This document shows, in pieces, positions 3,786 to 18,854 of a DNA stretch of 64,000 nt; the stretch's first letter is position 1, and every line of letters begins with the position of its first letter. A model generated the notes under the pieces. The model saw only the letters and a list, made by a program, of their open reading frames with translations. It did no database searches and had not been told where the DNA came from. The position numbers and the translations under genes are program-made. This stretch comes from Escherichia coli. GTDB lineage: Bacteria > Pseudomonadota > Gammaproteobacteria > Enterobacterales > Enterobacteriaceae. The stretch is from assembly GCF_030384885.1 (NCBI RefSeq), contig NZ_CP128613.1; one strand, written 5' to 3'.

Positions 3786-4667
3786 TTAATTCTTACGACC
3801 GGTAATGCGGCACCACTCTTCTTTTTCCACGACCGGGTCCAGAGCGAAGCTGTCGGCATAAGCTTCACAAACGCTCTCTGCCTGGCTTGCCAGAATACCG
3901 GAAAGGCCCAGCAAGCCACCTGAAACCGGCAGGACGCTGATTAACGGTGCCAGTTCACGTAATGGGCCTGCAAGGATGTTAGCGACCACCACGTCGGCTT
4001 TCATTTCTTCTGGCTGATCTTTAGGTAGGTAGAGCTCCAGACGGTCAGAAACGCCATTACGTTCGGCGTTGTCGCGGCTGGCCTGAATCGCCTGCGGATC
4101 AATATCAATACCAATGGCTTTTGCTGCACCCAGTTTCAGCGCCGCGATAGCCAGAATGCCGGAACCACAGCCAAAGTCGATGACCGTTTTACCGGTTAAA
4201 TCGAGGCTGTCGAGCCATTGCAGGCACAGAGAGGTGGTTGGATGAGTCCCTGTACCAAACGCCAGCCCTGGGTCTAACATCACGTTAACGGCGTTTTCGT
4301 CCGGCACATCACGCCAGCTTGGGCAGATCCACAGTCGTTCACCAAAGCGCATCGGGTGGAAATTATCCATCCATTCGCGCTCCCAGTCTTTATCTTCCAG
4401 TTGTTCGATTTTGTGCGCGAAGCCTGCGCCGAGCAGCGGATGATTCTCCAGAATCGCCACTACTTCATTCATGTCGGTTTCAGCATCGAACAGACCAATC
4501 ACATCGGTGTCGCCCCACAGGCGCGTTTCGCCCGGAAGCGGCTCAAATACAGGCGTATCGTGGGTATCCTGAAAAGTGATAGAAACGGCACCCGCTTCCA
4601 TCAGCGCATCGCTAAGATCTTCAGCATTCGCGCCGGTAGTGTTCAGTTTCAGTTGGATCCAAGGCAT
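3786..4667 (-). CDS. prmA: ribosomal protein L11 methyltransferase
   Basis: 293 aa with a SAM-methyltransferase motif ([20 protein letters not shown]); conserved position downstream of panF. Confidence 0.95.
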
Positions 4668-4678
4668 GGCAAAACTCT

Positions 4679-6130
4679 TTATTTATCAGTAGTCAAAACG
4701 GTAGCTTGCGGGACGGACGTACCGAAACGGTTTCCGACCAGGAAAGCCAGCAAACTTAGCAGTAACGAGGGCACGATAGGGTGGAAGCCCAGGTACTGAA
4801 TATTCAGGGTCGCAAGTACGGCATACAGCACGCCGCCAACGATCATCGCACTTAGCGCGCCTTTGGCGTTAGCGCGTTCCCAGTAAAGACCCAGCACCAG
4901 CGGCCACAGGAAGACAGCTTCCAGCCCACCGAAGGCCAGCAAATTCAGCCAGATGATCATTTCAGGCGGCTTCCATGCAGCAAGCAGCAGCAACGCGCCG
5001 AGAATCAACGTAATCACCGCCGACATCCGCTTCAGGCGCGTCTCGTTTTGCATTTGATCCGGACGGATATTCAGATAGAGATCTTTAATGATCGTAGCGG
5101 AACTTTGCAGCAATTGGGCGTTGATCGTCGACATGATCGCAGCCATAGGAGCTGCAAGGAAGATCCCGGCAGCAAATGGTGGCAATACTTTTACCATCAA
5201 CGTCGGGATCACCAGGTCCGGTACGGTGAGATCGGGGATCACTGCACGACCTAATGCTCCGGCCAGGTGCATACCGAACATCAGGATTGCGACCACAATC
5301 GTACCGATGATGATCCCCCGATGTACGGCTTTGCTGTCTTTATAAGAGATACAGCGCACCGCAGTATGCGGCAGGCCAATCACGCCAAAACACACCAGCA
5401 CCCAGAACGACGTCATAAACGCAGGTGACAGAATATCGTCAGCGCCTTGTGGCGTAACCAGTTGCGGATCGATGGTTTGCAGCGTCTCTACTGCATTGCT
5501 TAAGCCGCCAGCAGCATGGACCACGCCAATAAGCAGCACAATGGTGCCAATCAGCATCACCAGCCCTTGCATGGTGTCGTTCAGCACGCTGGCGCGAAAG
5601 CCGCCAAAGGCGGTGTAGAGCGCAATGCTGATGCCAAAAATCAGCAAACCTGTTTCATAAGGGATACCCGCCGCGGTTTCCAGCAGGCGCGCACCGCCGA
5701 TAAACTGCACGGTCATCGCACCAACGAACGCAACCAGCAAACTCAAACTCGCCAGCCACACCAGCAGGCGACTCTGGTAGCGGGCAAACAGCATATCGTT
5801 CAGCGTCACCGCATTGTAGCGGCGCGCGAGAATCGCGAACTTCTTGCCGAGAATACCGAGCGAAAGCCAGACCGCAGGTAGCTGAATCATTGCCAGCAAT
5901 ACCCAACCCAGGCCGTATTTATAAGCAGCTCCTGGCCCGCCGATAAACGAACTGGCACTGATATAGGTCGCGGTGAGCGTCATCGCCAGCACAATACCGC
6001 CCATAGAACGGCTGCCGAGGAAATACTCATTGAGGAAGGTGCCGGTGTTCCGTTTACGCATTGCATAAACTGAAATCCCGAACACCACCACCAGATAGGC
6101 GACCAGCGGTAGAATCACTTCAAGCTGCAT
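4679..6130 (-). CDS. panF: sodium/pantothenate symporter
   Basis: ORF 4679..6136; multi-TM SSS-family transporter; start taken at [13 protein letters not shown] to give 483 aa. Confidence 0.9.
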
Positions 6131-6380
6131 CGTCATCCTCCAGCGGGATATCGCGATAGATAAATTTCACCATCGCCCAGCACAGTCCAATAAACAGCAG
6201 CGGCGTCAGGATGCAAGCCATCTCAAACCAGCGTGGAAAGCCGGTAAAACCGGAGGTAACGCCAGGTAAGTAAGCGGCTACTAACCATACCGCCAGATAC
6301 AAAAGGGTCAGCCCCAGCGCCCAGCGCGCCTCTTTATGGGCCTGAACAAAACGAGTGTCCACGGAAGGGGTCCTCCTCAT
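6120..6380 (-). CDS. yhdT: small membrane protein YhdT (DUF997)
   Basis: Small two-TM ORF overlapping the panF start; an alternative GTG start at 6362 would give 80 aa. Confidence 0.75.
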   Translation of the reverse strand: MRRTPSVDTRFVQAHKEARWALGLTLLYLAVWLVAAYLPGVTSGFTGFPRWFEMACILTPLLFIGLCWAMVKFIYRDIPLEDDDAA

Positions 6381-6454
6381 GGGGGGATACGAGAAACGGG
6401 CAATTCTACGGCAACTCTTCAGGCAGGGAAAATAATCTGACAGAAAATTGCCGT

Positions 6455-7411
6455 TCAGTGCTCCTGCAAAAAGTCTTCAATGTCAGCCAGTGAGGATACC
6501 CCTTCCATCGGACCTTGCCGCATTACCGCGAGCGCGCCGCTGGCATTTGCATATTGCAGCGCCTTGTGTGCCGGGATACCGGATAAGAAAAGAGTGACAA
6601 ACGTTGCGCCAAAGCAGTCGCCTGCACCCGTTGGATCGATTATTTCGATATCGTGGCCTGCAACATGCTTGGCGTGTAATGTTCCGTTTTTAAGCTTGTA
6701 ATAGCTGGCCCCACGCTGGGCGCGTTTTATCGCCACATGTTTTACGCCGCCGTGGAGAAGATCGCTAACAATCTGTTCTTCTGACAGATTTTTGTGACGC
6801 GCGAAGAAAGGGAGTTCGCTTTCGCTGGGGATAAAAATATCCGTATATTCAATCAAATAATCGAGAGCCTGCGCCATTTCAGGAATACTCAGCATCTCTT
6901 TGCGAATATTGGGATCGAAAGAAACGGTGCCGCCAGCCGATTTGATCGTCGTTATTGCTTTACGCATGACATCGATCATGCGAAATGAGAACAATGATGA
7001 GCCCACAATATGCAGATGGTTACACTGTTTTAGCAGATCCTTATCAATGTGCTCGGCAGTAAACAAACCGCAGGCGCTGTTAGGGATATTAAAGACGAAA
7101 TCCCGCTGCTGTGGATTTTGATAACTTACGAACGCCGTACCTGTCACGGCATTGTTCATCACGTGGATCCCATCGGTAATGACACCTTCATGACGAAGAC
7201 GTTCTACAATGAGTCGGCCAAAATCATCATTACCAACACATCCGAAGAAGATGGCCCGATGGGACAGTTTTGCCACTTGAGCTGCAAAAATTGCAGGCGC
7301 ACCGCTAGGAAATGGCCCGATAAACTCCCCCGGCTGAGTGAATTTTTGATGTGGGTTGCGGGACAAAAACTCGGCCAGCAATTCGCCCATAGCGCAGATA
7401 GTTATTGTCAC
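6455..7411 (-). CDS. pfkB-family carbohydrate kinase (island kinase 1)
   Basis: ORF 6455..7465; GTG start at 7409-7411 preferred because it has a GAGAGGGG Shine-Dalgarno and aligns with the paralog at 12944..13906; ribokinase/pfkB signature DPTGAGDCFG near the C-terminus. Confidence 0.8.
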   Translation of the reverse strand: MTITICAMGELLAEFLSRNPHQKFTQPGEFIGPFPSGAPAIFAAQVAKLSHRAIFFGCVGNDDFGRLIVERLRHEGVITDGIHVMNNAVTGTAFVSYQNPQQRDFVFNIPNSACGLFTAEHIDKDLLKQCNHLHIVGSSLFSFRMIDVMRKAITTIKSAGGTVSFDPNIRKEMLSIPEMAQALDYLIEYTDIFIPSESELPFFARHKNLSEEQIVSDLLHGGVKHVAIKRAQRGASYYKLKNGTLHAKHVAGHDIEIIDPTGAGDCFGATFVTLFLSGIPAHKALQYANASGALAVMRQGPMEGVSSLADIEDFLQEH

Positions 7412-7421
7412 AAAACCCCTC

Positions 7422-8252
7422 TCATTCCTGAAGCCTTTCGCGATTGGACCAGGTAAAGCACTCATTACTGGTATAAAGGATAACGAAATCAGCCGACTGC
7501 AATTGTTGCTGATATTGTTCGTTAATGCTGCGGCTGACGATCACATTTTCTGCCTGATGCAAATGTCCAATGGCTGCCGTTGATGGCGCAGGATCGGCGG
7601 CAACGATAACTGTCTTATTCTGGGCATTATCGAAACAGAGCTGCCAGGCAGCGGCAAGTCTGGGAACGTTGATATTTAAAGTACCATCAGCATCCAGATG
7701 GCTGATTTCCAGAATGCTGTGTGTAATGGTGAAATGCTGAAGTGCCTGTTCGAGCGGTTTTCCGGCCAGTGCGGTGTCGGGGCGCAGCATTTCACTGCCA
7801 GCCAGTATTATTTCGCCATCAATAAACTGATTTGCCAGCAGCGCATGTTCGGGATCGTTGGTGATCAGACGCAGTTTTTTCACTTCGCTGAGCAATGGAA
7901 TGATCTTACGGCAGATTGTCCCATGTCCAAGAAATAGCGTGTCACGATCCCGAATTAACCGTGCGCAATGTCGTGCTATTTCCATTTGTTGTGCCAGAGA
8001 CAATGGCGCGATCGGTTGTATCGCTTCTGGTTCAGAGGAGAGTGGTGTCGCAATAGCACCGCCAAATGATCGCTTTAAATATCCCTGTTGCTCCAGATAA
8101 CTGAGATCGCCGCGGATCGTCACGCCAGAGACACCAAGTTGCGCAGATAAGTCATCAACTTTGATTTCACCCTGGGCGGCAACAATTTCTGCAATTTTTA
8201 ATCTGCGTTTCAGTAGGTTAGACGATTTTCTCGGCACGTTAACACTCTTCAT
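7422..8252 (-). CDS. DeoR-family transcriptional regulator
   Basis: 276 aa; N-terminal DeoR-type HTH region (RRLKIAEIVAAQGEIKVDDLSAQLGVSGVTIRGDLSYLEQQGYLKRSFGGA) followed by a DeoR-C sugar-phosphate-binding domain. Confidence 0.85.
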   Translation of the reverse strand: MKSVNVPRKSSNLLKRRLKIAEIVAAQGEIKVDDLSAQLGVSGVTIRGDLSYLEQQGYLKRSFGGAIATPLSSEPEAIQPIAPLSLAQQMEIARHCARLIRDRDTLFLGHGTICRKIIPLLSEVKKLRLITNDPEHALLANQFIDGEIILAGSEMLRPDTALAGKPLEQALQHFTITHSILEISHLDADGTLNINVPRLAAAWQLCFDNAQNKTVIVAADPAPSTAAIGHLHQAENVIVSRSINEQYQQQLQSADFVILYTSNECFTWSNRERLQE

Positions 8253-8420
8253 TGGCCTTTAATGCGTAACACTATAGCCCCTTGTATTTTTCTTTGAAAG
8301 TTACCCTTCAATAATATCGACAATTCGAAAATAAAAGCATAGGGCAAAAATTGCAGCAAAAATAGCTTAATGCATTGAAAATAAATGAATATTTCCATAT
8401 CTGTCCAAAGGCATCATTGG

Positions 8421-9447
<1,027 letters not shown>

Positions 9448-9481
9448 GACGTTGTACCCTACAAAACAATGAGGATTGTTT

Positions 9482-10372
9482 ATGAAAAATATTAAATTAC
9501 TTGGTTCCGCTATGATGGTGAGCCTGGCATTGTTCTCGCAAAGTTCATTGGCAAAAGAGTATAAAATTGGAGCTTCATTATTAACACAGCAACACCCTTT
9601 TTATATCGACCTCGCAAATGCAATGAAAGAAGAGGCGAAAAAAGACAATGTCAATTTAAGTGTCTCTATTGCCAATCAGGATTTAAACAAACAGCTTTCT
9701 GATGTTGAGGATTTTATTACTAAAAAGGTAGATGCCATTATTATCTCTCCAGTCGATTCGAAAGGTGTCCAGGCAGCGATAATTAAAGCCGATAAGGCTG
9801 GTATTCCCGTTATCACCGTTGACGTTGCCGCGGAAGGCGTTCCGGTCGTATCGCATGTTGCGACCGATAATTACGCGGGAGGCGTTGAAGCTGGTAAGTT
9901 AATGGGCAAACTTTTGAATGGTAAAGGTACTGTAGCCATTATTTCTTATCCTGCACTACAATCGGTGGTTGCGCGCGTTGATGGTTTTAAGAAAGGGTTA
10001 AGCGAGACACCGGATATTAAAATTGTTGCTGAACAGCTAGGTATAACGCGGGCTGAAGCGTTAACGACTGCGCAAAACATTATGCAGGCCAACGCCAACC
10101 TGAATGGTCTGTTTGGCTTTGGTGATGATGCGGCGTTGGCAGCGGTTATCGCAGCGAAATCTGCGCATAACGACAACATCAAAATCATTGGTTTTGACGG
10201 CATGAAAGAAGCGCGTGATGCCGTTGACAGTGAAAAAACGTTTGCGGCCGTGATTCGGCAATATCCCTATCAAATGGGTGCTAAAGCCATTGATGCTGCT
10301 GTTGATCACCTCAATGGTAAACCGGTAGAAAAAATGATCCCGGTACAACCCGGCGTTTATACAGGTAAATAA
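9482..10372 (+). CDS. periplasmic sugar-binding protein of ABC transporter (PBP1, CUT2 family)
   Basis: ORF 9476..10372; ATG at 9482 has a GAGGA Shine-Dalgarno; signal peptide MKNIKLLGSAMMVSLALFSQSSLA followed by a ribose-binding-protein-like fold. Confidence 0.85.
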   Translation: MKNIKLLGSAMMVSLALFSQSSLAKEYKIGASLLTQQHPFYIDLANAMKEEAKKDNVNLSVSIANQDLNKQLSDVEDFITKKVDAIIISPVDSKGVQAAIIKADKAGIPVITVDVAAEGVPVVSHVATDNYAGGVEAGKLMGKLLNGKGTVAIISYPALQSVVARVDGFKKGLSETPDIKIVAEQLGITRAEALTTAQNIMQANANLNGLFGFGDDAALAAVIAAKSAHNDNIKIIGFDGMKEARDAVDSEKTFAAVIRQYPYQMGAKAIDAAVDHLNGKPVEKMIPVQPGVYTGK

Positions 10373-10387
10373 TAAACATCTTCATTT

Positions 10388-10418
10388 CACAACAAAACGT
10401 TATCGACGTTTTGTTGTG
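10388..10418 (+). other. inter-cistronic stem-loop between binding-protein and ATPase genes
   Basis: Perfect 12 bp inverted repeat cacaacaaaacg / cgttttgttgtg with a 7 nt loop, 15 bp downstream of the binding-protein stop. Confidence 0.45.
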
Positions 10419-10432
10419 ACACCGAGGTCATT

Positions 10433-11932
10433 ATGACGGATGTTATTCTTGATGTTTCGCATATTGCGAAGACATTTGGTCATGTTCAGGCATTAAAAGA
10501 TATTACCCTCTCTTTACGTAAAGGGCGGGTGCATACTTTATTAGGCGAGAATGGTGCCGGTAAATCGACATTAATGAAAATACTCGCCGGTGTTTATCCG
10601 CCAACCCAGGGAACGATAACACTACGTGGTGAAACCATCACCATTAATAATCCGCAGCATTCTCGCCAGTTAGGGATTGCGATTATTTTTCAGGAACTGA
10701 GCCTGAGTAATAATATGACCGTGGCGGAAAATATTTATGCCAATAATGAACCGCGACGTTTTGGCATTATTAACGATAAAAAAATGCTCGCAGATTGCCA
10801 GAATCTCCTCGCGGAACTGGGCATCCCACTGGATCCGCTGGAAATGGTCGGCAATATGTCGATGGCACATAGGCAACTGGTAGAAATTGCCAAAGCCTTA
10901 AGCTATGCAGCAGATGTCGTGATTATGGATGAACCGACATCTTCGCTAAGTGATAATGAAGCAGAGATTCTGTTTAACATTATTGAGAAATTAAAGCAGC
11001 GAGGTTGTGCGGTTATTTATATCTCTCATCGCATGGATGAAATTATGCGGATTTCAGATGATATTTCGGTGATCCGCGACGGTGAGTATATCGCTACGCA
11101 TGAAAAGAAAAACAGTGATATCCAGCATTTGATTGCCCAAATGGTTGGTCGGGAAATGAAAAATATTTGGCCAGCACGTCTTGGGGAAAAGCCGGATGAA
11201 AATGTTCCTGCAAAACTGGAAGTAAAAAACCTTTCCCATCCTTCGCTTTTTAAAGAGGTCAGTTTCGCTGTGCGTCCGGGGGAAGTCCTCGGATTTTTTG
11301 GCCTGGTGGGGGCCGGGCGTTCCGATGTGATGAAGGCGCTATTTGGCCTCGTTTCGTATCACGGGACTGTGTTGATTGATGGTAAGGAAGTCAGGATCGC
11401 TAATCCCAAACAGGCTATTGATCATGGCATTGCTTTTGTGACCGAAAACCGCAAGGAAGAAGGGTTAGTGCTGATGCACGACGTCAATATGAACACGCAC
11501 CATGTGGCGTTTCAATATAACGCTTCGCGGATGGGACTCATCAATCACCGACAAGAAGAGGCGAAGACGCTGCAATCTATTGCCAGAATGAACACTAAAG
11601 TGAGTTCAGTACATCAGGCAGTGGGAGCGCTGAGCGGCGGTAATCAACAGAAAATCGTGTTATCCAAGTGGCTGGAGAAAACTCCGCGTATTTTATTGCT
11701 CGATGAGCCAACGCGCGGAGTGGATGTCGGCGCAAAATTTGAAATCTATAACGTGATACGTCAACTGGCTGCGGCAGGGACAGCAATTATTCTGGTGTCC
11801 TCTGAACTGCCAGAGGTCATGGCACTTAGCGATCGTCTGGTGGTAATGCGTAATAAAACGATTGCCGATATTTATTCATGTGAAAATTTAACGCAGACAC
11901 AGGTAATGACCGCTGCAACAGGAGTACGTTAA
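10433..11932 (+). CDS. sugar ABC transporter ATP-binding protein (duplicated NBD, RbsA/AraG-like)
   Basis: 499 aa; two Walker A motifs (GENGAGKST, GLVGAGRS), ABC signature LSGGNQQK and Walker B LLLDEPT. Confidence 0.9.
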   Translation: MTDVILDVSHIAKTFGHVQALKDITLSLRKGRVHTLLGENGAGKSTLMKILAGVYPPTQGTITLRGETITINNPQHSRQLGIAIIFQELSLSNNMTVAENIYANNEPRRFGIINDKKMLADCQNLLAELGIPLDPLEMVGNMSMAHRQLVEIAKALSYAADVVIMDEPTSSLSDNEAEILFNIIEKLKQRGCAVIYISHRMDEIMRISDDISVIRDGEYIATHEKKNSDIQHLIAQMVGREMKNIWPARLGEKPDENVPAKLEVKNLSHPSLFKEVSFAVRPGEVLGFFGLVGAGRSDVMKALFGLVSYHGTVLIDGKEVRIANPKQAIDHGIAFVTENRKEEGLVLMHDVNMNTHHVAFQYNASRMGLINHRQEEAKTLQSIARMNTKVSSVHQAVGALSGGNQQKIVLSKWLEKTPRILLLDEPTRGVDVGAKFEIYNVIRQLAAAGTAIILVSSELPEVMALSDRLVVMRNKTIADIYSCENLTQTQVMTAATGVR

Positions 11933-12922
11933 ATGACAGAGAAAACTCTTGCCAGTCCGAAACCTTCGGAAATTCCCATTGCAAATAATTTTAAAAAAGT
12001 CTTCAGGCAATATGGCGGTATCCTCAGTGGAATGGTGGTGTTAATCATTCTGTTCAGTTTTATTAATGACAGTTTTTTTACTGCCAATAACATTACTAAT
12101 ATTATTCTTCAGGTTTCGATAATTGCAATTACCGCCTATGGAATGACTTATGTACTTTTGCTTGGCGATATTGATTTATCGGTCGGTTCAACCATTGCAT
12201 TGATTGGCACATTTGCTGCGCTTGGGGCTTCATGGGGAATTCCATTTATTTTATTGGTCCCATTATCCATTATTGCAGCCCTGGCTTTGGGGATGATAAA
12301 TGGTGGCTTGACGGCTATAGCGGGTATCCCTTCGTTTATTGTCACCGTTGCTACTATGGGGATCTTCCGTGGTATCGCTTATATAGTGACCGATGGTATG
12401 CCCATCATGATTAAAGATGATGCCTTTCTGGCGCTGGGGAATGGAGAATTTCTCTATATACCTATTCCTATCTGGATATTAATCATCTTATTGCTGATTA
12501 ACCACTTCATTCTTACTAAAACAACCTTTGGACGAAAAATTTATATCACTGGTGGTAATAAAGAAGCGGCAGTTTATTCAGGGATAAATGTCACCCGCTT
12601 GAAAATTAAAGTCTTTATGATTACAGCCGTGCTGGCAGGTATCAGCGGGATGATCCTCGCCTCACGCCTCTATTCCGGGCAACCGAATTCCGCGTTGAGC
12701 TACGAACTGGATGCTATTGCCGCGGCTGTACTGGGAGGCACCAGCCTGAACGGCGGCTATGGAACCGTGGTGGGGACGGTGATCGGCGCATTAACCATCG
12801 GCGTTATTAATAATGGCATGAACTTAATGAATGTTCCCTATTTTTACCAGATGGTGGTTAAAGGATTAGTCATTCTTGTAGCCGTTTATTTTGACGTAAG
12901 AAATAAAAGAAAACGCAGCTAA
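11933..12922 (+). CDS. sugar ABC transporter permease (RbsC-like)
   Basis: 329 aa polytopic membrane protein; ATG immediately after the ATPase stop codon. Confidence 0.85.
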   Translation: MTEKTLASPKPSEIPIANNFKKVFRQYGGILSGMVVLIILFSFINDSFFTANNITNIILQVSIIAITAYGMTYVLLLGDIDLSVGSTIALIGTFAALGASWGIPFILLVPLSIIAALALGMINGGLTAIAGIPSFIVTVATMGIFRGIAYIVTDGMPIMIKDDAFLALGNGEFLYIPIPIWILIILLLINHFILTKTTFGRKIYITGGNKEAAVYSGINVTRLKIKVFMITAVLAGISGMILASRLYSGQPNSALSYELDAIAAAVLGGTSLNGGYGTVVGTVIGALTIGVINNGMNLMNVPYFYQMVVKGLVILVAVYFDVRNKRKRS

Positions 12923-12943
12923 TCATTTCAAGGAATTAATCAT

Positions 12944-13906
12944 ATGAGTAAGGTCTTCACAATTGGAGAAATTCTGGTTGAAATTATGGCGAGTAAAATC
13001 GGCCAGCCATTTGATCAACCAGGTATCTGGAACGGCCCTTATCCCAGTGGTGCGCCCGCTATTTTTATCGACCAGGTGACACGTCTTGGCGTTCCGTGCG
13101 GCATCATTAGCTGTGTGGGGAATGATGGCTTTGGTGATATTAATATACATCGTCTGGCTGCTGACGGTGTGGATATCAGGGGGATTTCAGTCTTACCTCT
13201 GGAAGCTACCGGGAGTGCCTTTGTTACTTATCATAACTCTGGCGATCGCGATTTTATTTTTAATATCAAGAATGCCGCTTGCGGTAAATTATCGGCGCAG
13301 CATGTTGATGAAAATATTCTGAAGGACTGTACCCATTTTCATATTATGGGTTCATCCCTGTTTTCATTCCATATGGTAGACGCAGTAAAAAAAGCAGTAA
13401 CCATCGTTAAAGCAAATGGTGGCGTTATTTCTTTCGACCCTAATATTCGTAAAGAGATGCTCGATATTCCAGAAATGCGTGACGCCCTCCACTTTGTTCT
13501 TGAGTTAACAGATATCTATATGCCCAGCGAGGGAGAAGTGTTGCTCTTGTCGCCACACTCGACACCGGAGCGTGCAATCGCTGGTTTTCTTGAAGAAGGT
13601 GTTAAAGAGGTGATTGTGAAGCGCGGCAATCAAGGTGCCAGTTACTACTCCGCGAATGAGCAGTTTCATGTTGAGAGCTATCCGGTGGAAGAAGTTGACC
13701 CGACCGGTGCGGGAGACTGCTTTGGTGGCGCGTGGATTGCCTGCCGCCAGCTAGGGTTTGACGCCCATCGGGCATTACAATATGCCAACGCCTGCGGTGC
13801 ACTGGCGGTAACCCGACGTGGCCCAATGGAGGGAACGTCTCGCCTTGCGGAAATCGAAGCGTTCATCCAGCGCCATGACATGTCCATTCGGGAAGCAGCA
13901 CAATGA
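12944..13906 (+). CDS. pfkB-family carbohydrate kinase (island kinase 2)
   Basis: 320 aa; N-terminal GEILVE motif and C-terminal DPTGAGDCFG; clear paralog of the kinase at 6455..7411. Confidence 0.85.
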   Translation: MSKVFTIGEILVEIMASKIGQPFDQPGIWNGPYPSGAPAIFIDQVTRLGVPCGIISCVGNDGFGDINIHRLAADGVDIRGISVLPLEATGSAFVTYHNSGDRDFIFNIKNAACGKLSAQHVDENILKDCTHFHIMGSSLFSFHMVDAVKKAVTIVKANGGVISFDPNIRKEMLDIPEMRDALHFVLELTDIYMPSEGEVLLLSPHSTPERAIAGFLEEGVKEVIVKRGNQGASYYSANEQFHVESYPVEEVDPTGAGDCFGGAWIACRQLGFDAHRALQYANACGALAVTRRGPMEGTSRLAEIEAFIQRHDMSIREAAQ

Positions 13907-14949
13907 AAAACGAAATTTGGTCGTGGATTGGCGATCTCTCGCAGGTTGCCGGAATTAAACACTATGAGTTATGTAGTGGCAGATCAAAGGGGACAGAAGC
14001 GTTTGATGTCCGTACTGGTGCGGGATTGGCATTTACGGTGGTAAAAGATCGCGCGCTGGATATTGCATGGGCCAGCTACAAGGACACTGCGCTCTCTTTT
14101 ATCACCCCCAACGGCATTGTCGCCCCCGCTTTTTTTGAGTCTCAGGGCAACGGGTTTTTACGTAGCTTCTACGCGGGGTTACTGACTACCTGCGGACTTA
14201 GCTACATTGGCACGCCCTGTGAGGATAACGGAGAAACGCTGGGATTACACGGACGTTTGGCTGCGACACCAGCGGAAGAGGTGGGATATCGCACAGAACG
14301 GACCGACGACGGCATTGAATTTGTCATCAATGGCAAATTACGGGAAACGCGATTGTTCGGTGAAAATCTGACGTTGGAAAGGACCATTCGCTGCCGCTAT
14401 GGCGAAAATGTGCTGCGCATTGAAGACAAGGTGACTAATCATGGTTTCACCCGCCAGCCGCTGCAAATTCTTTATCACTTTAATTACGGCTGGCCTTTAT
14501 TATCGCCACAGGCAGAAATCTTGCTGTCGGCTAAAAGCGTAACGCCACGAACCCCGCATGCGGCGGAAGGGTTAACCAGTCATCTGGAGATTTGTACCCC
14601 ACAGCCCGGTTTTGACGAGCAGGTTTACTATCTCACGTTGAATAGCGACAGTCAGGGGATGAGTAAAGTTGCGCTGGTGAACGCCGAACTGGGGTGGGGA
14701 ATTTACGAGAAATTCGACACCATGCAGCTACCCAACTTTATCCAGTGGAAAAATTTAGGCGCGGGTGAATATGTTATGGGGCTGGAGGTCAGCAATAGTT
14801 TTCCTGACGGTCGTGATAAAGAACGAGCGCAGGGGCGTCTGCCCTTTATAGAGCCAGGGGAAACAAAGACATACTGCTTTGAGCTGGGAATTGTTGATGG
14901 CGATGCTGAAATTAGCGCGTTGAAAGCGGAAATTGCAAGCTACCGTTAG
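13903..14949 (+). CDS. DUF4432-like / mutarotase-like protein of unknown function
   Basis: 348 aa; start overlaps the kinase 2 stop (ATGA); family assignment from recall only and tentative. Confidence 0.65.
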   Translation: MKNEIWSWIGDLSQVAGIKHYELCSGRSKGTEAFDVRTGAGLAFTVVKDRALDIAWASYKDTALSFITPNGIVAPAFFESQGNGFLRSFYAGLLTTCGLSYIGTPCEDNGETLGLHGRLAATPAEEVGYRTERTDDGIEFVINGKLRETRLFGENLTLERTIRCRYGENVLRIEDKVTNHGFTRQPLQILYHFNYGWPLLSPQAEILLSAKSVTPRTPHAAEGLTSHLEICTPQPGFDEQVYYLTLNSDSQGMSKVALVNAELGWGIYEKFDTMQLPNFIQWKNLGAGEYVMGLEVSNSFPDGRDKERAQGRLPFIEPGETKTYCFELGIVDGDAEISALKAEIASYR

Positions 14950-14965
14950 CTAACGGCAATAAAAA

Positions 14966-14992
14966 CGCCGGGCAGCGTTAACAGGCCCGGCG
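14966..14992 (-). terminator. Rho-independent terminator downstream of accC
   Basis: Hairpin cgccgggc-N11-gcccggcg; on the minus strand it is followed by a T run (tttttattgcc), appropriate for ending accBC. Confidence 0.5.
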
Positions 14993-15040
14993 TTGATTAC
15001 GTTCTTTGCTAAGCGCGATGAAAACACCGCGCGTCACAAA

Positions 15041-16390
15041 TTATTTTTCCTGAAGACCGAGTTTTTTCTCCAGATAGTGGATGTTAGTGCCACCATGCTG
15101 GAAGTTCTCGTCATTCATGATGCGGATCTGCAGATCAACGTTGGTTTTGATACCGTCGATGATCAGCTCCTGCAGCGCATTCTTCATGCGGGCAATCGCC
15201 ACGTCACGGTTTTCACCGTAGCAAATCAGCTTACCGATCATTGAGTCATAGTACGGCGGTACGGTGTAGCCCGCGTAGATATGAGACTCCCAACGCACGC
15301 CAAAACCGCCAGGTGCATGGAAACGGGTGATTTTGCCCGGACTTGGCAGGAAGGTGTTCGGATCTTCGGCGTTGATACGACATTCCACCGCATGGCCGCG
15401 AACGTGAACTTCTTCTTGCTTGATCGACAGCGGCTGACCGGCAGCGATACGCAGCTGTTCTTTGATCAGGTCAACGCCAGTGATCATTTCGGTAACCGGG
15501 TGTTCTACCTGAATACGGGTGTTCATTTCGATGAAATAGAACTCGCCGTTTTCGAACAGGAACTCGAAAGTACCCGCACCGCGATAGCCGATATCAACAC
15601 ACGCTTTAGCGCAACGTTCGCCGATGTAGCGACGCAGTTCCGGGGTAATGCCCGGTGCTGGCGCTTCTTCGACCACTTTCTGGTGGCGGCGCTGCATGGA
15701 GCAGTCACGTTCCGCCAGATAGATAGCGTTGCCCTGACCGTCAGCCAGTACCTGAATCTCGACGTGGCGAGGATTTTCCAGGTATTTCTCCATGTAAACC
15801 ATGTCGTTATTGAAAGCGGCTTTCGCTTCCGCACGGGTCATGGAGATGGATTGTGCCAGTTCAGCGTCGCCGCGTACTACACGCATACCACGACCGCCGC
15901 CGCCGCCGGAGGCTTTGATAATCACCGGGTAACCAATGCGTTTTGCAATGGCGCGGTTTTTATCCATATCGTCGCCCAGCGGGCCGTCAGAACCTGGTAC
16001 GCAAGGAACGCCCGCTTTTTTCATCGCGGCGATTGCGGATACTTTGTCACCCATCAGGCGAATGGTGTCTGCTTTCGGGCCGATGAAGATAAAGCCGGAG
16101 CGTTCAACCTGCTCGGCAAAATTGGCGTTCTCGGAGAGGAAGCCGTAACCCGGATGGATTGCTACTGCGCCGGTGATTTCAGCGGCGCTGATGATTGCCG
16201 GGATGTTCAGATAACTTTTTACTGACGGAGCAGGGCCGATACAGACCGTTTCATCTGCCAATAATACGTGTTTTAGATCGCGATCCGCGCTGGAGTGCAC
16301 AGCGACAGTCTTGATGCCCAGTTCTTTACAGGCACGAAGAATACGCAATGCAATCTCGCCGCGGTTGGCAATAACAATTTTATCCAGCAT
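15041..16390 (-). CDS. accC: biotin carboxylase subunit of acetyl-CoA carboxylase
   Basis: ORF 15041..16429; start taken at [27 protein letters not shown] to give 449 aa; ATP-grasp motifs present. Confidence 0.95.
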
Positions 16391-16400
16391 GTTCGCCTCG

Positions 16401-16871
16401 TTACTCGATGACGACCAGCGGCTCGTCAAATTCTACCGGTTGTCCACTTTCGACCAGAATTGCTTTCACGGTACCGGATTTGTCCGCTTCGATCTGGTTC
16501 ATCATTTTCATGGCTTCAACGATGCACAGGGTATCGCCCACGTTGACTTTCTGACCCACTTCGATGAACGCTTTTGCGTCCGGGCTTGGGGTGCGGTAGA
16601 AAGTACCAACCATCGGGGAACGTACGATGTGACCACTGATTTCCGCTGCTGCTGGCGCTTCCATGGAAGGAACGGTCGCCGGAGCGGCTGCGTTAGATTG
16701 AGCTGGCTGCTGCATCATTGGTGCAGCGTAAGCTTGTTGCATCACAGGGAAACTTGCGGCAGGAGCTGCACGGCTGATGCGTACTGACTCTTCGCCTTCG
16801 GAGATTTCCAGTTCGGAGATGCCTGATTCTTCAACCAGCTCGATCAGTTTTTTAATCTTACGAATATCCAT
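16401..16871 (-). CDS. accB: biotin carboxyl carrier protein
   Basis: 156 aa; Ala/Pro-rich linker and biotinylation motif [10 protein letters not shown]. Confidence 0.95.
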
Positions 16872-17879
16872 GAGTGGGTTCCGTACTCTTTGTTTAGTGT
16901 GATTGTGACAGGCGTTTCACCGCCGTCTGTAAAGCGTATGCCCCGACAGCTGTATGCATAGCGATAAATTCCAGCAGGCCGGGACGCCGGTCTATTTTGC
17001 CCCAGAGTGTCAATGTTAGACTTGACGGACATTGTGCAGCGATCTGCTGCTATCCTCCGGCAAAAAACAAAATATACCTTCGTTGCGCCAATGTCACCTT
17101 TTCCGCAGCGCAAAAACTGCGTCAGGGAGGACGAGGTCGCACATTATAACGATTTCGTAGCAATTGGCAGCTAAATACTGGTCTTATCAGGGAAGATAAT
17201 CAACAGCTAACATGTAAATAACCTTCAACACCGTGTAATTTGCAACAAGCCGCACAATTCACGAAATTAGCGCTATCGTCGACGGAACTTCTTATAACGT
17301 AAGGCTAAAAGCTGTAAAGCCAGCCCTGCGAAGATGAGGGGCTGCAATGAGATAATCTTCACAGACCACAAATAATGTAGGGATGTCAGGATCGCGGCAA
17401 GATAGACGACATTACGCAGCGGTTGCTGGTGATTACTCAATTTTCACTGCATCGTCTGGATAAACGTCAATGCTAAAGCACGCAAAATCAACAAACTGAC
17501 AATGCTCAGCATCAAATAGCTTTGAGTGGTTAATTTATAATCAAATAAAATCAGATTATTCACCCCTGGGATCCGAGTTAAGGTACAGATTAAGCGTAGC
17601 GTCACCCAGGCAAAGCGCCTTAAACCTAACAGACGACGGGACGTATCAATAATGACTATTTAGTGGAGTATCAAGGGGGTTTTCCACCGTTTGGTGACCC
17701 GTATCAATGCGCATCAATTTATGGTCAGTCGAAATCATGACTTTCCAGTTTGGATGATGTTGTACAACTTCATGACCAAGATGTTCGACGAAAGCTGTCC
17801 GGCTAACCGCTTTTCCCGTTAACCGATTGAATAATGATTTCAAAATGAGTTCCCTCTCTTATTATTCCCTGCTAAATGG

Positions 17880-18854
17880 TTAGTTAACCTTCACCAGCGT
17901 GCGACCCTGGATCTGGTTATTAATGATGGCCTCGGCAAATTTCGGTGCCTCTGCCAGAGATATCTCTTTTGCCGCCTGGGTATAGAATGATTCCGGTAAA
18001 TCGGCGACCAGTCGCTGCCAGGCTTGTGCGCGGCGTGCTGGTGGCGTCATCACTGAATCCACCCCCTGTAAACGGACATTACGCAGAATAAATGGCATGA
18101 CCGTGGTTGGCAGAGTAAAACCACCCGCCAGACCACAGGCCGCCACGCAGCCGCCGTAATTCATTTGCGCCAGCACTTTCGCCAGCACTTTGTCGCCAAC
18201 GGTGTCAATTGCCCCAGCCCAGAGTTGTTTTTCCAGAGGACGGGATTCGGCAAACTCATCGCGAGGGAGAATACGGCTGGCACCTAAACTTTTCAGATAT
18301 TCATGGGTACTTTCGCGACCGGAAACGGCAACGACCTGATAACCCAACTTATGCAGCAGCGCCACGGCGGTACTGCCGACGCCACCACTGGCACCCGTTA
18401 CGACAATCTCGCCGTCCTGCGGGCGAACACCGGCATCTTCCAGCGCCATCACACACAGCATGGCGGTAAAACCGGCAGTACCGATAATCATTGCTTTACG
18501 CGCGTCCAGCCCTTGCGGCATGGCAACCAGCCAGTCACCTTTCACTCGCGCCTGCTCCGCCAGCCCACCCCAGTGGTTTTCACCAACGCCCCAGCCAGTG
18601 AGTAATACGTCCTGACCGGCATGAAAACGCGGATCTTCGCTGGTGCGTACAGTTCCGGCAAAATCGATCCCAGGAATCATCGGAAAATTACGGATGATTT
18701 TTCCCTTACCGGTAATTGCCAGCGCATCTTTGTAGTTCAGGCTCGACCAGTGAACATCAACCGTGACATCGCCCTCCGGCAGGCGACTTTCGTCCAGAGT
18801 CTGTACCGATGCGAGAGTTTTGCCGTCCTGCTGTTCTAAAAGTAACGCCTGCAT
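17880..18854 (-). CDS. acuI: acrylyl-CoA reductase / MDR-family NADPH oxidoreductase
   Basis: 324 aa zinc-independent quinone-oxidoreductase-like protein (YhdH); Rossmann motif GASGGVGS. Confidence 0.88.
   Translation of the reverse strand: MQALLLEQQDGKTLASVQTLDESRLPEGDVTVDVHWSSLNYKDALAITGKGKIIRNFPMIPGIDFAGTVRTSEDPRFHAGQDVLLTGWGVGENHWGGLAEQARVKGDWLVAMPQGLDARKAMIIGTAGFTAMLCVMALEDAGVRPQDGEIVVTGASGGVGSTAVALLHKLGYQVVAVSGRESTHEYLKSLGASRILPRDEFAESRPLEKQLWAGAIDTVGDKVLAKVLAQMNYGGCVAACGLAGGFTLPTTVMPFILRNVRLQGVDSVMTPPARRAQAWQRLVADLPESFYTQAAKEISLAEAPKFAEAIINNQIQGRTLVKVN

Follow-up and report, generated by a model that had tools for sequence, protein, structure and literature searches.

The closest described relative of the locus analyzed here is the tag cluster of EcN, a B2-phylogroup E. 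coli, which spans 8.7 kb (Ha et al., 2022, iScience, PMC9720028). EcN grows on D-tagatose, as does K-12 carrying the cloned EcN cluster, and a single-gene deletion of the second of its two kinase genes has been published (PMC9720028). The same study reported an island GC difference of -4.9% and inferred horizontal transfer, and it gave a single GC value per cluster, with no gene-by-gene composition. TagR, the regulator of the cluster, is a tagatose-responsive repressor (Park et al., 2025, PMC12226905). More distant relatives are the tagatose-galactitol ABC clusters of Sinorhizobium meliloti and Agrobacterium tumefaciens (cited in PMC9720028), which have the sugar-binding protein (SBP), ATPase, permease, and tagatose kinase in common with the E. 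coli island, but lack the class II aldolase, the DUF4432 gene, and kinase 1; in these clusters a GatZ-like enzyme epimerises tagatose 6-phosphate to fructose 6-phosphate (PMC9720028). A third point of comparison is provided by the CUT2-family operons of K-12 (rbsACB, alsBAC, xylFGH), in which, as in the island, Peripla_BP_4, two-domain ATPase, and BPD_transp_2 genes adjoin a sugar kinase. Unlike the island, these operons serve other substrates, are present in all E. coli, and have host-like third-position GC, with the exception of xylF and xylG.

We analyzed a 64,000-nucleotide stretch of DNA (the window), which derives from an E. coli chromosome nearly identical to that of strain 2013C-4282. 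Gene annotation was taken from RefSeq for that near-identical strain and placed in the window via anchor matching, with zapE omitted; exact identity of the window with NZ_CP027579.1 was ruled out by a few substitutions and indels. The island occupies 6363-15040, flanked by yhdT and accC, where K-12 carries only a 108-bp accC-yhdT spacer. Its features are as follows.

6120-6362, minus strand: yhdT, core gene on the left flank, from the RefSeq annotation of 2013C-4282.
6363-6454, no strand: left junction, the intergenic stretch from yhdT to kinase 1; similarity to K-12 ends just upstream of the yhdT start codon.
6455-7390, minus strand: sugar kinase 1, PfkB family, homologue of ECOLIN_RS18705 (Pfam PfkB 1.9e-44; GC 0.489, GC3 0.503).
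7422-8252, minus strand: DeoR/GlpR regulator, TagR (Pfam HTH_DeoR and DeoRC; GC 0.481, GC3 0.458).
8253-8592, no strand: divergent control region, very A/T-rich (GC 0.30-0.35 by segmentation).
8593-9447, plus strand: class II tagatose-1,6-bisphosphate aldolase (Pfam F_bP_aldolase 9.6e-100; GC 0.475, GC3 0.417).
9482-10372, plus strand: periplasmic SBP of the ABC transporter (Pfam Peripla_BP_4 1.7e-54; GC 0.437, GC3 0.393); among the shared genes its GC3 is the lowest in most orthologous clusters examined.
10433-11932, plus strand: ABC transporter ATPase with two ATP-binding domains (Pfam ABC_tran, two stretches; GC 0.454, GC3 0.446).
11933-12922, plus strand: ABC transporter permease (Pfam BPD_transp_2 3.6e-41; GC 0.420, GC1 0.439; FYMINK residues 36.6%).
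12944-13906, plus strand: sugar kinase 2, the D-tagatose kinase, homologue of ECOLIN_RS18675 (Pfam PfkB 8.3e-42; GC 0.487, GC3 0.458).
13903-14949, plus strand: DUF4432 / aldose 1-epimerase family gene, in a variable terminal slot (Pfam DUF4432 4.6e-104; GC 0.504, GC3 0.530).
14950-15040, no strand: right junction, with a terminator-like hairpin on the minus strand (14979-14964) downstream of accC; it has no similarity to the K-12 accC-yhdT spacer.
15041-16390, minus strand: accC, core gene on the right flank (annotation and Pfam biotin carboxylase domains).

The island shares all eight genes, their order, and the accC/yhdT site with the EcN cluster. By Pfam, one operon comprises aldolase, SBP, ATPase, permease, kinase, and an aldose-1-epimerase-like gene, and the opposite operon a DeoR regulator and a kinase; the published spacer between the two tag operons is 341 bp (PMC9720028). 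Gene annotation is the same as in SYNB1934, an EcN derivative, to which the island is 97.0% identical at the nucleotide level over 8,601 bp (~8.6 kb). Divergence within E. coli is patchy from gene to gene (1.3-5.4%) and is highest in the divergent control region (7-8%). The island was found in 1,419 of 5,426 complete E. coli genomes (26%); the window allele, 3% apart from the B2 allele, is a rarer one, with at least 99% identity in one complete genome only. A separate copy of the aldolase gene, 86.5% identical, was observed on an E. coli plasmid. On the basis of the literature, the SBP, ATPase, and permease would import D-tagatose, kinase 2 would convert it to tagatose 6-phosphate, host PfkA would form tagatose 1,6-bisphosphate, and the island's class II aldolase would cleave this to DHAP and glyceraldehyde 3-phosphate, with the operon expected to be repressed by the DeoR-family protein TagR.

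A sequence-only reading of 9482-12922, whose limits coincide exactly with the start of the SBP gene and the end of the permease gene, had described the transporter genes as markedly more A/T-rich than their island neighbors and the core genes, and had proposed horizontal origin and possibly assembly from parts with different histories. That the island is of horizontal or accessory origin is supported by its absence from K-12, its 26% carriage, and its synonymous usage, which is A/T-shifted relative to core genes (p of 1e-17 to 1e-23). It is also not new; earlier publications already cover the island and its D-tagatose function, as well as its low GC and the probable horizontal origin. For the second proposal we reach a different reading, to which we assign a probability of roughly 80%: the segment is the ABC-transporter part of the already characterized E. 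coli D-tagatose island, and its GC dip is not the signature of a segment acquired separately. This reading rests on the gap lying mostly at the amino-acid level, on synonymous usage shared across the island, and on the recurrence of the dip in orthologous clusters.

The base-composition contrast itself was borne out, as the three transporter genes have the lowest GC of the island (43.7, 45.4, and 42.0%) and the other five genes 47.5-50.4%, against a core mean of 0.531 (sd 0.029) calculated over a background of only the 36 window genes of at least 150 codons. After pooling, GC stood at 0.440 in the transporter set and 0.488 in the other five genes (chi-square p = 1.8e-5); of comparable three-vs-five contrasts within runs of eight adjacent core genes, only 3% were equally large. 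The observation is nevertheless only partly confirmed. By codon position, transporter vs other island GC was 0.524/0.584, 0.366/0.404, and 0.429/0.477 (gaps of 0.060, 0.038, and 0.047). When only the four enzyme and regulator genes that are shared serve as the reference, positions 1+2 show a gap of -0.050 and position 3 one of -0.031, so that ~77% of the total falls at positions 1+2 and the gap is therefore mostly at the amino-acid level.

Synonymous codon usage did not separate the transporter genes from the rest of the island (chi2/df 0.95, p = 0.55), and both sets were A/T-shifted relative to the core (p = 2e-23 and p = 7e-17, respectively). Amino-acid composition did differ between the two sets of proteins (p = 6.5e-7). 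The transporter proteins are richer in Ile (10.3 vs 7.5%), Lys (6.1 vs 4.0%), Asn (5.4 vs 3.8%), Met, and Val, and contain less Glu, Arg, and Cys. The frequent AAA, AAT, and ATT codons that had been noted in these genes are indeed there, but they encode Lys, Asn, and Ile, residues in which the transporter proteins are enriched. A codon-adaptation-like index, computed relative to the window's own core genes, ranged from 0.585 to 0.662 across all island genes with no pattern specific to the transporter. The island behaves as a single compositional block with a common A/T-shifted synonymous usage relative to the E. coli core, and the transporter dip, 4-5 GC points beyond the island-wide shift, is a trait of these protein classes.

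The same dip is found in orthologous clusters and in native operons. All 13 orthologous clusters had a negative gap at positions 1+2, and 12 of them a negative total gap, across cluster GC3 values of 0.43-0.68 and hosts of roughly 45-56% GC; the 13 clusters are mutually related, so that sign tests on them are not independent. In the K-12 CUT2-family operons, as in the island, transporter GC at positions 1+2 (0.44-0.52) lies below that of the co-operonic kinase (0.54-0.555), and overall GC shows a similar dip (xylF 0.440 and xylG 0.471 vs xylB 0.548; alsA 0.479 and alsB 0.485 vs alsK 0.549).

Some results count against our preferred reading, among them the deep-time separate ancestry of modules described below. 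A small third-position gap of 0.429 vs 0.477 remains (p = 0.017) if the other genes include kinase 1 and DUF4432. In Citrobacter farmeri, GC3 changes in a step-like manner, from 0.52-0.56 in kinase 1, regulator, and aldolase to 0.43-0.47 in the block from SBP to kinase 2.

One alternative, which we consider improbable, is that the island arrived as one block and that its end genes, kinase 1 and DUF4432, then moved toward the composition of the host or were lost to recombinational replacement, with the center unchanged. The resulting gradient would have been mistaken for a difference of transporter from non-transporter genes. GC3 is indeed lowest centrally, in the aldolase and SBP genes, and highest in the two end genes. 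Likelihood/BIC segmentation placed an A/T-rich domain at ~6750-13550, and this alternative takes the two breakpoints as falling within end genes; the codon usage of kinase 1 alone is indistinguishable from that of core genes (p = 0.11), and the patchy divergence within E. coli is typical for recombination. Against this, DUF4432 ranks first for GC3 within the island in five of six carrier genomes (second in ENT03) and is a swapped-in gene, and its higher GC may stem from its own origin rather than from its position. Nor does this alternative account for the gap at positions 1+2, which is the bulk of what was observed.

A true mosaic, in which the transporter module, alone or together with kinase 2, came from a donor of lower GC than the source of the aldolase, regulator, and kinases and kept the donor's composition, appears very improbable to us. 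The transporter genes do have the lowest GC of the island, and their GC3 is lower than that of the other genes by 0.03-0.05 in four clusters, those of E. coli, E69, C. farmeri, and K. spallanzanii. Moreover, the transporter and kinase 2 are the sole module in common with Rhizobium, Agrobacterium, and Acidisoma loci (56-62% identity for transporter proteins, 49-50% for kinase 2) and with alpha- and beta-proteobacterial clusters generally (PMC9720028). A gammaproteobacterial contig of 32% GC has the module in another gene order. The shared synonymous usage largely refutes a mosaic, however. GC3 is homogeneous across the six inner genes, from the regulator through kinase 2 (p = 0.56), with aldolase third positions no less A/T-rich than those of the transporter genes, and the segmentation breakpoints lie inside kinase 1 and kinase 2, away from 9482 and 12922. 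The gap, being mainly at the amino-acid level, is also kept where cluster GC3 equals that of the host (Trabulsiella, Serratia, and Enterobacter sp. BIGb0383).

Gene histories likewise spoke against assembly from different parts. Distance matrices of the seven shared genes were congruent (r 0.86-0.98) in a comparison by distance methods on eight taxa only, and transporter distances correlated with those of DeoR and kinase 2 at r = 0.96. Neighbor-joining trees of the shared genes had clades in common (E. coli with E69, the Trabulsiella pair, and Serratia with Budvicia). With synonymous usage alike, the dip present in 12 of 13 clusters, and distances congruent, the earlier case for parts of separate origin, read from composition, is not supported. 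Modularity in the island is nevertheless real but is unmarked by composition, and a deep-time separate ancestry of modules is real as well, in that alpha- and beta-proteobacterial clusters share only the transporter and kinase 2 module.

Only the last gene, DUF4432, has a history that is clearly its own. It had been grouped with kinase 2 as less A/T-rich, but DUF4432 occupies a variable slot. A GatZ_KbaZ-like gene takes its place in Serratia H1w and Budvicia, and it is missing from the Trabulsiella, Yersinia, and Enterobacter sp. BIGb0383 clusters; identity of its homologues is 80-85%, falling to 57% or less outside the Enterobacteriaceae. Other genes vary too, with the aldolase missing from the K. 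spallanzanii and Raoultella clusters and kinase 1 from one relative, Enterobacter sp. BIGb0383. A Firmicutes origin of the whole cluster, which might have accounted for the low GC, was rejected, as the distant DUF4432 homologues lie in unrelated sugar clusters without this transporter. The nearest SBP relatives beyond the Enterobacterales are in alphaproteobacteria and on the gammaproteobacterial contig of 32% GC.

We also considered the age of the island at its site. The accC-yhdT site is occupied in Citrobacter, Superficieibacter, Trabulsiella, Klebsiella spallanzanii, two Enterobacter-like species, and one Serratia, in a survey whose pattern-based genome scan overlooked established carriers, Serratia fonticola and Yersinia among them, and to which Yersinia, Citrobacter, and Raoultella loci were added by exact-protein look-up. 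Across genera, island protein distances follow those of the flanking core genes (r 0.84-0.92). While the EcN study describes a recent acquisition (PMC9720028), the island here diverges in step with its flanks across genera. Intergeneric transfer is undatable by dN/dS because synonymous sites are saturated between genera (pS 0.63-0.86), and all that dN/dS shows is that the island was not recently exchanged with any sampled genus. A classical integrative genomic island was ruled out, since no tRNA was found within 4000-18000, no integrase among the eight island genes by Pfam, and no direct repeat of at least 8 nt common to both island junctions. The island may be an old Enterobacterales resident of the accC-yhdT site rather than a recent foreign insertion, a suggestion we offer tentatively and regard as somewhat unlikely. 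Its GC has stayed 3-6 points under that of the host in E. coli as well as in another four or five genera, and is host-matched in Trabulsiella, Serratia, and BIGb0383. If the island is an old resident, this would imply a long-term failure of amelioration, or repeated replacement of alleles by homologous recombination through the conserved flanks, and the last gene would be a swappable slot that is filled by DUF4432, filled by a GatZ-like gene, or empty.

The significance of the transporter dip is small in itself, and the useful outcome is methodological. A GC dip of transporter genes inside an island is not evidence for a mosaic, because amino-acid composition by itself yields such a dip; tests of synonymous codons should come first, and separate histories after. 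For research on tagatose metabolism in B2 E. coli and on accessory-genome evolution, two side results may be of interest: the same site is occupied across genera by a cluster that is nonetheless A/T-rich in some hosts, and the last gene of that cluster varies (DUF4432, GatZ-like, or none).

The island between yhdT and accC is already known, having been published as the EcN tag cluster (Ha et al. 2022; PMC9720028). Its ABC system imports D-tagatose, kinase 2 yields tagatose 6-phosphate, and the 1,6-bisphosphate formed by host PfkA is cleaved by the island aldolase (PMC9720028); TagR, the DeoR protein, is a tagatose-responsive repressor (PMC12226905). A horizontal or accessory origin was likewise known: the horizontal transfer suggested in the sequence-only reading had been inferred before, in a study that put cluster GC on average 4.9 points under that of Enterobacteriaceae hosts and found the cluster in 93% of B2 genomes (PMC9720028). 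The window is chromosomal E. coli DNA; its positions 6000-15500 are near-identical to strain 2013C-4282 (reported 100.0%; one substitution, at 6371), and the allele is 97.0% identical to that of the EcN-derived strain SYNB1934. Among complete E. coli genomes (5,426), the island was found in 1,419 and flank-only matches in 5,425; in K-12, which lacks the island, the accC-yhdT spacer is 108 bp. A search for a tRNA, an integrase or a junction repeat at the island found none.

Island genes and core flanks, laid out from RefSeq annotation and Pfam searches, with GC and third-codon-position GC (GC3)
6120-6362, minus strand, yhdT (core flank)
6455-7390, minus strand, PfkB kinase 1; GC 0.489, GC3 0.503
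7422-8252, minus strand, DeoR regulator; GC 0.481, GC3 0.458
8593-9447, plus strand, class II tagatose-bisphosphate aldolase; GC 0.475, GC3 0.417
9482-10372, plus strand, periplasmic binding protein (SBP); GC 0.437, GC3 0.393
10433-11932, plus strand, two-domain ABC ATPase; GC 0.454, GC3 0.446
11933-12922, plus strand, permease; GC 0.420, GC3 0.436
12944-13906, plus strand, PfkB kinase 2; GC 0.487, GC3 0.458
13903-14949, plus strand, DUF4432/aldose-1-epimerase-like; GC 0.504, GC3 0.530
15041-16390, minus strand, accC (core flank)
36 core genes, mean ± sd; GC 0.531 ± 0.029, GC3 0.565 ± 0.041

Two further low-GC stretches also stood out. The control region between the divergent regulator and aldolase genes (8253-8592; GC 0.30-0.35) is the island's most variable part, differing by 7-8% from other E. 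coli alleles (genes 1-5%) and by 22% from that of the divergent strain E69 (genes 8-12%). Between accB and acuI, 16872-17880 (GC 0.437) holds only a 65-codon hypothetical ORF (17646-17843). This gap contains yrdF/yrdE pseudogenes in K-12, a yedZ-like pseudogene in EcN, and intact Ferric_reduct and Oxidored_molyb genes in Citrobacter farmeri; the stretch here looks like a decayed gene pair.

The whole island is A/T-shifted relative to core genes (Mann-Whitney p = 1e-4 for GC, 8e-7 for GC3), and the transporter genes have its lowest GC (pooled 0.440 versus 0.488 for the others, p = 1.8e-5). Adjacent core genes match a contrast of this size in only 3% of equivalent comparisons, so the transporter A/T-richness that had been noticed by eye is real. 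It is, however, mostly a matter of amino-acid composition. Transporter GC is below that of the other island genes at codon position 1 (0.524 versus 0.584), position 2 (0.366 versus 0.404) and position 3 (0.429 versus 0.477). When the comparison is restricted to the four genes that every orthologous cluster shares, the gap amounts to -0.050 for positions 1+2 and -0.031 for position 3, placing ~77% of it at the amino-acid level. The transporter proteins differ strongly in composition from the other island proteins (p = 6.5e-7), with more Ile, Lys, Val, Met and Asn and less Glu, Arg and Cys; the ATT, AAA and AAT codons that had drawn attention match residues enriched in them.

Synonymous usage conditioned on amino acid was indistinguishable between transporter and other island genes (chi2/df 0.95, p = 0.55), and each set is very strongly set apart from the core genes (transporter p = 2e-23, other island genes p = 7e-17). 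GC3 was homogeneous across the stretch that starts with the regulator and ends with kinase 2 (p = 0.56); the GC3 heterogeneity of the island stems wholly from its two end genes. BIC-optimal segmentation returned a single A/T-rich domain at ~6750-13550 (GC 0.445), with boundaries at neither 9482 nor 12922. A codon-adaptation-like index, computed relative to the window's core genes, spanned 0.585-0.662 across all eight island genes and had no transporter-specific pattern. Native K-12 sugar ABC operons behave similarly: their transporter genes fall below the kinase at positions 1+2 and sometimes far below overall (xylF 0.440 and xylG 0.471 versus xylB 0.548 GC; alsA 0.479 and alsB 0.485 versus alsK 0.549). 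Within the window's own nan operon, GC runs from 0.482 (nanQ) to 0.578 (nanE).

A genome-collection scan and exact-protein look-ups yielded 12 further cluster-bearing genomes. The yhdT-accC site holds the cluster in Superficieibacter electus, three Trabulsiella genomes, Klebsiella spallanzanii, Enterobacter sp. BIGb0383, C. farmeri and Serratia sp. H1w; in Enterobacter sp. ENT03 the cluster adjoins accC and the contig stops short of the other flank. This site is used in at least seven genera, one Serratia among them (comparison loci L006-L012, L014 and L086), and the clusters of Budvicia and Yersinia pseudotuberculosis lie elsewhere. Cluster GC is in line with host GC in Trabulsiella, Serratia H1w and BIGb0383 and is 3-6 points under it in E. 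coli, C. farmeri, Superficieibacter, ENT03 and K. spallanzanii. At positions 1+2, all 13 clusters had lower GC in the transporter genes than in the common enzyme and regulator genes, and 12 of 13 did so overall, despite cluster GC3 ranging from 0.43 to 0.68; this marks the dip as a property of the gene set, not a donor relic. Reading a mosaic into these compositional differences is not supported. Nor do separate histories emerge for the seven common genes: their pairwise protein distances correlate at 0.86-0.98 (r = 0.96 for transporter versus regulator plus kinase 2), neighbour-joining trees agree on the main clades, and the GC3 shift from host-matched clusters to the E. coli cluster is similar in all seven (about -0.13 to -0.28).

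Synonymous differences separating the E. coli island from its counterparts in each of the other genera are near saturation (pS 0.63-0.86) and at least as high as those of flanking prmA, panF and yhdT, and island and flank protein distances are correlated (Pearson 0.84-0.92; nine genomes with the cluster and these flanking genes). Relative to the EcN allele, the window differs by 1.3-5.4% per island gene and 0.8-4.8% in the flanks. These patterns fit long residence at the site, or homologous-recombination transfer together with the flanks; a recent alien insertion fits them less well. Against E. coli E69 (CP089930.1; L005 6271-14760), island genes differ by 8-11.6% and prmA, panF, yhdT, accC and accB by 3-6.5%, sequence divergences that would imply a deeper coalescence of the island alleles than of the flanks, or their separate entry.

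Related modules occur in other settings. In Raoultella planticola CP172720.1 (L087 1-14420), a tag-like cluster (kinase 1, DeoR, SBP, ATPase, permease, kinase 2; GC 0.42-0.475) lies ~1.5 kb downstream of TniB, TniQ, Csy2, Csy3 and Csy4. Because this set is typical of type I-F CRISPR-associated transposons, the sugar cluster may be cargo of such an element. A 32% GC gammaproteobacterial JGI contig labelled GC_32, 'gam1t' (L096 9001-15264) is a very low-GC carrier, with a differently arranged module (SBP at 72% identity, ATPase, permease, kinase 2, then kinase 1 and DeoR) that adjoins a transposase fragment. On the IS1-rich E. coli plasmid ECdb0033_p4 (L088 9050-9904), a lone copy of the island aldolase (86.5% nucleotide identity) sits with gatZ, a zinc dehydrogenase gene and several IS1 remnants, so the aldolase also moves by itself.

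Assembly from parts, the remaining element of the proposal, does hold over deep time, although the transporter dip is not its signature. The operon's last position is variable, being occupied by DUF4432 in E. coli, E69, Superficieibacter, K. spallanzanii, ENT03 and C. farmeri, by a GatZ_KbaZ-like gene in Serratia H1w and Budvicia, and by nothing in Trabulsiella, Yersinia and BIGb0383. The aldolase is absent from the K. spallanzanii and Raoultella clusters and kinase 1 from that of BIGb0383. Only the transporter and kinase 2 are common to Rhizobium, Agrobacterium and Acidisoma loci, in agreement with the published account (PMC9720028). Homologues of DUF4432 are 80-85% identical in Enterobacteriaceae and then at most 57%; the few distant matches with names come from clostridia, and both of the contexts examined proved to be different sugar clusters without this transporter. 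DUF4432, which had been placed among the compositionally normal genes, is in fact the clearest add-on of the cluster.
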